Shown here one piece after another: positions 5,609 through 5,840 of a stretch of DNA of 6,254 nucleotides. Each line of letters opens with the position of its first letter. Positions within the stretch are counted from its first letter, which is position 1. The notes under the pieces are model-generated. The model was not told the origin of the DNA. It made no database searches and worked only from the letters and a program-made list of their open reading frames with translations. The position numbers and the translations under genes were made by a program. The stretch comes from a virus (lineage: Duplodnaviria > Heunggongvirae > Uroviricota > Caudoviricetes), in IMG/VR virus record IMGVR_UViG_2623620503_000006; one strand, given 5' to 3'.

Positions 5609-5655
5609 CGACACGCTTTTTCCCGAAAAATTTTCATAAATAGCGAAAATCCGCG

Positions 5656-5667
5656 CCGCTGCCGCCC
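5656..5667 (-). other. cosN-like cohesive-end site (putative terminase nicking site)
   Basis: The minus strand reads ACG GGGCGGCAGCGG CGCGGATTTTCGCTATTTATGAAAATTTTTCGG. The flanks match the lambda cos junction as I recall it (ACG GGGCGGCGACCT CGCGGGTTTTCGCTATTTATGAAAATTTTCCGG), while the last 5 nt of the 12-mer differ at 4 positions. Confidence 0.65.
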
Positions 5668-5682
5668 CGTGGCAGACCACCC

Positions 5683-5699
5683 CACCGGAAGGACCCGTA
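5683..5699 (-). other. cosQ-like element
   Basis: The minus strand reads TACGGGTCCTTCCGGTG about 20 nt upstream of the cosN-like 12-mer. This closely resembles the lambda right-end sequence TACGGGTCCTTTCCGGTG that contains cosQ (recalled from memory). Confidence 0.45.
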
Positions 5700-5840
5700 C
5701 AAATAGAGTTATTATTAATTACATTTACAGTAGGAATGATGTACATCATTGAAACACCATTCAGTCATATACCGACAGCATTCGGTGTTGCACTTCATAA
5801 CTCTGCGACTACGGTTATAAAAGCATTGGCTACTTTTGCC

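Follow-up and report, generated by a model that had tools for sequence, protein, structure and literature searches.

Among the systems closest to the locus described here, the cos of the Salmonella phage Fels-1 was mapped after mitomycin induction, and read start-site analysis and PhageTerm gave it as 5'-GGGCGGCAGCGG-3' (Zünd et al. 2021, PMC8008629, Suppl. Table 4). In lambda-like phages at large, differences at base pairs (bp) 7–12 of cosN are common, and the site's left half, its two flanking base pairs (CG) and cosQ are conserved (Feiss et al. 2015, PMC4669245). According to the same study, N15 and phiD326 are variant at positions 9 and 12, and Gifsy-1 at positions 8, 9 and 11. Mutations in the right half often had minimal effects and C11G was without a phenotype, whereas G2C, the change symmetric to C11G, cut the yield tenfold. 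The lambda TerL cleaved the N15 cosN as well as the lambda cosN, and mismatched ends still cyclised, at a yield cost of about fourfold. The variability of bp 7–12 was explained by a TerS-anchored nicking of the right half-site. In the literature, specificity is placed in TerS–cosB, and packaging specificities can be asymmetric, as in N15. The cohesive end of LLS and mEp213 is given as GGGCGGCGCGCT in another paper.

Here, we analysed a stretch of 6,254 nucleotides of viral DNA (IMG/VR record IMGVR_UViG_2623620503_000006), hereafter the window. The initial annotation had noted in it a lambda-like cos with a divergent 12-mer, and such a site is indeed present on the minus strand. Its 12-mer, GGGCGGCAGCGG, differs at four positions (8, 9, 11 and 12) from GGGCGGCGACCT, the end of both lambda (NC_001416) and phage 21 (OL657228), which also confirms the lambda 12-mer that the initial annotation had given. 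The site is very probably a well-formed, structurally complete lambda-family cos, composed of cosQ, cosN, I2 and cosB followed by terS, in which the right half of cosN is a natural alternative.

Organization of the cos site

On the minus strand, the elements follow one another as ...GTACGGGTCCTTCCGGTGGGGTGGTCTGCCACG/GGGCGGCAGCGG/CGCGGATTTTCGCTATTTATGAAAATTTTTCGGG... (window 5730–5400; slashes delimit the 12-mer), which is the order of a lambda-family cos (Table 1). The nick region reads ACG/GGGCGGCAGCGG/CGCGG, the 12-mer being followed by CGCGGA. By homology, the top strand would be nicked at 5668/5667 and the bottom strand at 5656/5655. The two-fold symmetry of the cosN core comprises 10 of 16 positions, a count equal to that of lambda.

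Table 1. Features of the window (positions from its first letter), with the basis of each assignment
Feature	Position	Strand	Basis
cosQ heptamer GGGTCCT, packaging-termination signal	5690..5696	-	exact match to the lambda/21 heptamer
cosQ–cosN spacer TCCGGTGGGGTGGTCTGCCACG, cdtI/phi458 type, ending in CACG	5668..5689	-	identity to IMG/VR locus L196
cosN core CG/GGGCGGCAGCGG/CG; predicted 12-nt 5' cohesive end 5667..5656	5654..5669	-	lambda/21 end alignment
I2-equivalent AT-rich segment, bp 18–49	5619..5650	-	segment bounds per Sippy/Feiss 2016
cosB R3, putative TerS binding site by homology, 21 type, bp 50–65	5603..5618	-	AAGCGTGTCGGTACTT vs annotated phage 21 R3 AATCGTGTCGGTACTT, 15/16
I1, IHF-site equivalent, bp 74–86	5582..5594	-	TAACTCATTGTTT vs phage 21 TAACTTTTTGTTT, 11/13, position equal
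cosB R2, inverted, bp 108–123	5545..5560	-	AAGGTCCGACATGAAA, 16/16 to phage 21 R2, 1-bp shift
cosB R1, bp 151–167	5501..5517	-	TTCCATGTCGGACCCTG vs phage 21 TTTCATGTCGGGCCTTG, 14/17
terS, Nu1 family, 182 aa, apparently intact	4931..5479	-	Pfam Phage_Nu1 PF07471, E = 2.3e-83
terL'-'J in-frame fusion	3112..4959	-	BLAST vs ARS-C101; Pfam: J domains only
lom, Ail/Lom outer-membrane protein	2430..3050	-	Pfam Ail_Lom, E = 1.1e-53
stf side tail-fibre gene, 776-aa ORF	41..2371	-	Pfam phage_tail_N, Phage_fiber_2, Collar
IS3 copy end, ~440 bp upstream of cosQ with respect to late transcription	6133..6254		terminal repeat TGATCCTACCCACG... from 6133

The cosQ heptamer lies 22 bp from the top-strand nick, as compared to 23 bp in lambda, and the 22-bp spacing is common to cdtI, phi458 and many IMG/VR loci. 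The spacer TCCGGTGGGGTGGTCTGCCACG is one nucleotide off the right end of the cdtI record, and only its terminal ACG is alike in lambda and 21. On the opposite side of cosN, TTTTCGCTATTTATGAAAATTTT at 5649..5627 (minus strand) is identical to lambda bp 19–41 at 23 of 23 positions. Thus, of the lambda-like flanks and cosQ that had been described, the exact cosQ and the block of bp 19–41 stand, while the stretch from cosQ to the nick belongs with cdtI/phi458 and the sequence beyond bp 41 is 21-like.

The window holds the cosQ heptamer, the GGGCGG left half with its flanking CGs, I2, and the R3–I1–R2–R1 spacing that together characterize a lambda-like cos. The composite motif GGGTCCT-N18-26-ACGGGGCGG-N6-CGCGG had a single match in the window, whereas 200 shuffles gave none, and the alignment with the phage 21 cos is collinear over ~250 bp, running on into the Nu1-family gene. 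Given both observations, we consider the chance negligible that the resemblance to cos is a coincidence or that the region is not homologous to cos.

On its right side, the site is arranged as in phage 21. R3 lies at the same distance from the nick as the phage 21 R3, and the ATG of terS is at bp 189 (window 5479), as in phage 21. The encoded TerS is identical to phage 21 gp1 at 171 of 182 residues (94%) and to lambda Nu1 at 96 of 182. In residues 1–27, which include the wHTH recognition region, the sole difference from phage 21 is K7R. At the sequence level, both determinants of phage 21 specificity, the TerS recognition helix and the R-site sequences, are thus of the 21 type. Given this recognition region and these R sites, the packaging specificity is predicted to be that of phage 21, and the cohesive end that of Fels-1.

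The left flank and the 12-mer are identical to those of a cdtI-type IMG/VR locus, L196 (ATAACTCTATTTGTACGGGTCCTTCCGGTGGGGTGGTCTGCCACG GGGCGGCAGCGG CGCGGA). Past CGCGGA, L196 reads AAAAGGCTAG..., whereas the window reads TTTTCGCTATTTATG... and then the 21-type cosB. The cdtI, Fels-1 and Gifsy types are recognized by a right flank of GAAAAAGGCTAGTTTTTG or GGATTTGGCGCATTTT, a DUF1441-type terS and a terL of ~700 aa; the window instead has TTTTCGCTATTTATGAAAATTTT and then a Nu1-type terS, and only its left flank and 12-mer are of the cdtI/Fels-1/Gifsy type. Since the site combines the left flank and 12-mer of one family with the right side of another, it is a chimera, or recombinant: cosQ, the spacer and the end would derive from the cdtI/Fels-1/Gifsy-type lineage, and bp 18 rightwards from the phage 21 lineage, with the lineage switch probably located within or just after the conserved core. 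The initial annotation had taken the site to be of the lambda type, which holds for its membership in the lambda family; it had overlooked the chimera and the phage 21 type of the recognition elements.

The region upstream of cosQ contains several other features. A 53-aa ORF (MMYIIETPFSHIPTAF...) lies just upstream of cosQ at 5736–5897 on the plus strand, antisense to the late genes. It gave no Pfam match, and phi458, cdtI and phiSTEC1575-Stx2k likewise encode its N-terminal motif, M-x-IIETPFS, at the corresponding location. A near-perfect hairpin, TTATAGAAGTCCTTCA-ctgt-ATGAAGGACTTCTATAA, is present at 6021–6058, between the IS3 end and cos, and two stem-plus-T-run motifs, CCGGTTTTTTATTT, are found at ~5871–5887 and 5999–6014. 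A promoter and terminator scan of 5480–6254 returned nothing above shuffles.

The defective prophage around the site

The best full-length relative of the window is a prophage of E. coli ARS-C101 (L245), in which the gene order is int, xis ... Q, lysis genes, bor, IS3, cos, terS, terL, portal, head, tail, J, lom, stf. By BLAST, positions 1–1502 of the minus strand of the window correspond to L245 20001–21502 with 100% identity, and positions 1500–4462 to L245 38540–41502 with 99.9% identity. As compared to L245, 17,037 bp are absent from the window, and a 3-bp ATC overlap (microhomology) lies at the junction, at ~4753–4755. The deletion joined terL codons 1–69 (4959..~4753) to the C-terminal ~545 residues of the tail-tip protein J, and strain VG48B2 has the terL–J junction in common with the window. 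The terS gene adjoining cos is full length, the large terminase gene is cut after codon 69, and the cognate enzyme of the site is not encoded in the window. Window positions 1–4755, covering the J C-terminus, lom and stf, match lambda as present in K-12 lysogens with 99.9% identity. A sharp mosaic boundary thereby separates the lambda J–lom–stf segment from the 21-like packaging module, in an otherwise non-lambda prophage.

The IS3 end sits in the late operon, between a DUF1398 gene and cos. An IS3 transposase is annotated at the equivalent place in VG48B2 and ARS-C101, and the insertion is also present in the 100%-identical full-length relatives ARS-C101, VG35A2, EC11 and N61, a point that we counted against our reading of the site as a complete cos.

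With 17 kb missing and only 69 codons of terL left, joined to J, the prophage is unable to package itself, its head and tail genes having been lost by the 17-kb terL–J deletion. The earlier description of a defective prophage is borne out by this fusion; its cause, though, is the deletion and not anything in cos, which is undamaged. This copy of cos may still be usable, but only in trans: at most, a co-resident phage that has the packaging specificity of phage 21 could cut it or package the DNA. In lambda, finishing a chromosome needs a second cos in the same orientation at ~75–105% of genome length. Productive packaging of the excised element is unlikely, because the element would be ~17 kb shorter than its parent and a second cos in the same orientation would be needed.

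Recurrence of the 12-mer and its terminase partners

The divergence of the 12-mer had been left between two readings, decay of the site in a defective prophage and a different cohesive end belonging to related phages. Most of the 141-bp cos of the window was found in 27 of 5,426 complete E. coli genomes; among the matches listed, identity was 100% in 5 genomes and at least 99% in 7 records. The cos of ARS-C101, a prophage that carries the full head–tail gene set, is 100% identical and has the same 12-mer. GGGCGGCAGCGG is also kept in OkiPb01716, RM8082 and RM13745, in which the left flanks differ at several positions, the IS3 is absent, and terS, terL, head–tail joining and portal genes are annotated. 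The Fels-1 record reads CCACG GGGCGGCAGCGG CGCGGG.

These observations bear directly on decay, according to which mutations built up in the 12-mer once the prophage had become defective, leaving the cos non-functional. Such a history would suit the terL–J deletion, the nearby IS3 and the 4 of 12 positions unlike lambda, but it is highly improbable: full-length relatives have a cos segment 100% identical to this one, diverged prophages keep the exact 12-mer, and Fels-1 has it as its mapped end. Furthermore, all of the changes fall in bp 7–12, the tolerated half, leaving untouched the left half with its flanking CG as well as cosQ, I2 and the R sites, and random change would not yield one exact allele across lineages. 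The suggestion that mutations are concentrated in the nicked segment through decay is therefore rejected, and GGGCGGCAGCGG is a natural cosN allele. The alternative put forward at the same time, a different cohesive end of related phages, agrees with the mapped cos of Fels-1, with the prophages that have intact terminase genes and with the tolerance of bp 7–12.

To place this allele among others, IMG/VR was scanned with three patterns: an I2-block anchor, a cdtI-type right-flank anchor and a non-canonical-allele pattern. With the I2 anchor (lambda/21 type) and cosN left free, 121 sites comprised GGGCGGCGACCT (108), GGGCGGAAGGCG (6), GGGCGGCAGACG (3), GGGCGGCAGCGG (2) and two singletons, and the left half was GGGCGG in 120 of them. 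The scan anchored on the cdtI-type right flank, GAAAAAGGCTAGTTTTTG, also gave 121 sites, with the right halves GAGCGT (90), GAGCGG (19), GAGCAT (7), CAGCGG (2) and a few others; here the GGGCGG left half was present in 118 and the CACG and CGCG flanks in 119. Pooling both flank-anchored scans, GGGCGG was found in 238 of 242 sites, and several right-half alleles were seen in both. The non-canonical-allele scan fixed ACGGGGCGG and CGCGG, and conservation was thus judged from the two flank-anchored scans only. In this third scan, GGGCGGCAGCGG accounted for 19 of 125 sites, in three distinct right-flank contexts; its matches L182, L190 and L205 are chance matches within coding sequence. Our scans reproduce the pattern of variable bp 7–12 and a conserved left half described by Feiss et al. 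(2015).

Another allele, AAGGCG, found in the isolated phage PhiR46_1 (L129) and in L008, L029, L175 and L187, is accompanied by five or more different left flanks and three or more right flanks (cosB types), and the 12-mer therefore reassorts independently of both neighbours. In PhiR46_1, GGGCGGAAGGCG is combined with a lambda-type cosB. INPHARED contained no isolated phage with a 21-type cosB and a CAGCGG end, the best 21-type cosB matches all being canonical, and this, too, weighs against our reading. When the literature was searched in full text for both strands of GGGCGGCAGCGG and of four further alleles, only unrelated matches came up; the Fels-1 datum sits in a supplement.

As a separate observation, three IMG/VR contigs, L139 (positions 95, 8230 and 10766), L167 (7101 and 9606) and L231 (7638 and 10174), contain two or three co-oriented cdtI-type cos. 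An interval of 2.5 kb that recurs between two of these cos comprises only an 80-aa ORF and a 637–638-aa fusion of a ClpP protease and the major capsid protein, and a DUF1441 terS-like gene follows the second cos. This interval could be a deletion remnant beside another prophage, or a satellite-like element.

If the altered right half required a co-adapted TerL, it would mark a separate packaging specificity class, and TerL should then differ along with the allele. The TerL beside this cos in full-length relatives does branch off separately, with ~82% identity to phage 21 gp2 and 64% to lambda, and N15 provides a precedent for asymmetric packaging specificities. Nevertheless, TerLs of 99–99.9% identity pair with different right halves in both terminase lineages. 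Five gpA proteins adjoining AAGGCG, including that of PhiR46_1, are 98.9–99.4% identical to lambda gpA and 99.2–99.8% identical to their nearest canonical neighbours, with no residue separating the classes. Similarly, cdtI-type TerLs that are 99.8–99.9% mutually identical adjoin CAGCGG, GAGCGG or GAGCGT; this comparison comprised the 700-aa proteins clustering with the annotated phi458 large terminase, as the rule of taking the first long ORF after cos had also caught two of the 637/638-aa protease–capsid fusions, which are not TerL. The 21-type relative TW10690, moreover, pairs its 21-type cosB with GGGCGGGAGCGT, thus bearing GAGCGT, and in the literature the N15 cosN and the lambda cosN are equally well cut by lambda TerL, with specificity lying in TerS–cosB. 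The right half does not co-vary with TerL in either lineage, and a changed nuclease specificity is accordingly quite improbable. The TerL of the full-length relatives would be expected to tolerate the CAGCGG right half; its identity of only ~82% to phage 21 gp2 was weighed against our reading. The Fels-1 ends are no proof of cutting by a 21-type enzyme, because the Fels-1 TerL belongs to a different lineage (~700 aa).

A natural right-half allele is compatible with the TerS/IHF-anchored model accepted in the literature, which our data fit and to which they add the absence of TerL co-variation. In this model, by homology with lambda and 21, TerS dimers would bind the 21-type R sites and IHF would bend the DNA at I1. 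The R3-bound TerS would anchor one TerL endonuclease on the right half-site, the bottom-strand nick after bp 12 being fixed by the distance from R3 and not by sequence, while a second TerL would read the conserved left half, CG/GGGCGG, and make the top-strand nick. The product would be a 12-nt 5' overhang, GGGCGGCAGCGG. Because both chromosome ends derive from one allele, any right half should work, and positions 7–12 would therefore vary among phages.

The site among known cos systems

When the 12-mer of a lambda-like cos departs from that of lambda, this should not be taken as damage, the right half being a free variable. In searching for cos and predicting ends, it is preferable to anchor on cosQ, CG/GGGCGG and the I2/cosB spacing, and not on the full lambda 12-mer. 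We also considered a broader and unlikely proposal, in which the right halves (CGACCT, GAGCGT, CAGCGG, GAGCGG, AAGGCG, GAGCAT and CAGACG) are a small set of discrete, non-neutral end types, exchanged among unrelated terminase lineages when recombination or end-joining takes place exactly at cos. If so, the window would be one such product, with a cdtI/Fels-1-type end on a 21-type cosB, and the end types could act as compatibility groups that shape viable lambdoid hybrids or shared packaging, since mismatched ends lower the yield about fourfold (Feiss et al. 2015). Beyond correct annotation, the importance of the site is small.

Phage 21 (OL657228) resembles the window in the distances of I2, R3, I1, R2 and R1 from the nick, in TerS and in the cosQ heptamer. 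It differs in its end, GGGCGGCGACCT as compared to GGGCGGCAGCGG, and in its cosQ–cosN spacer, which is 23 bp long and unrelated in sequence to the 22 bp of the window; in addition, the terL of the window is truncated. Fels-1 (NC_010391) has the same 12-mer and the same flanking CACG and CGCGG, whereas it lacks GGGTCCT at the cosQ position, and its right flank, GATTTGGCGCATTTT..., is unrelated to that of the window, as is its terminase, with a DUF1441-type TerS and a TerL of ~700 aa. In the phages of the cdtI (NC_009514), phi458 and VT1-Sakai type, the left side (cosQ, 22-bp spacer and CACG) is nearly identical to that of the window. Their usual end, in contrast, is GGGCGGGAGCGT, and on their right side cdtI-type terminase genes come after GAAAAAGGCTAGTTTTTG; the cdtI record itself opens with the cohesive end GGGCGGGAGCGT and closes with ...CTGCCACG. 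HK97 has 3' overhangs and a different cos, and hence is not comparable. A dedicated survey of cosN variation was reportedly made by Vahanian et al. in 2017.

As in the natural cosN variation described by Feiss et al. (2015, PMC4669245), the changes in the window are confined to bp 7–12, and that paper does not name the allele of the window in a phage 21-type context. Both the phenomenon and the exact 12-mer are already in the literature, and what appears to be new is only the pairing of a 21-type cosB and TerS with a Fels-1-type end.
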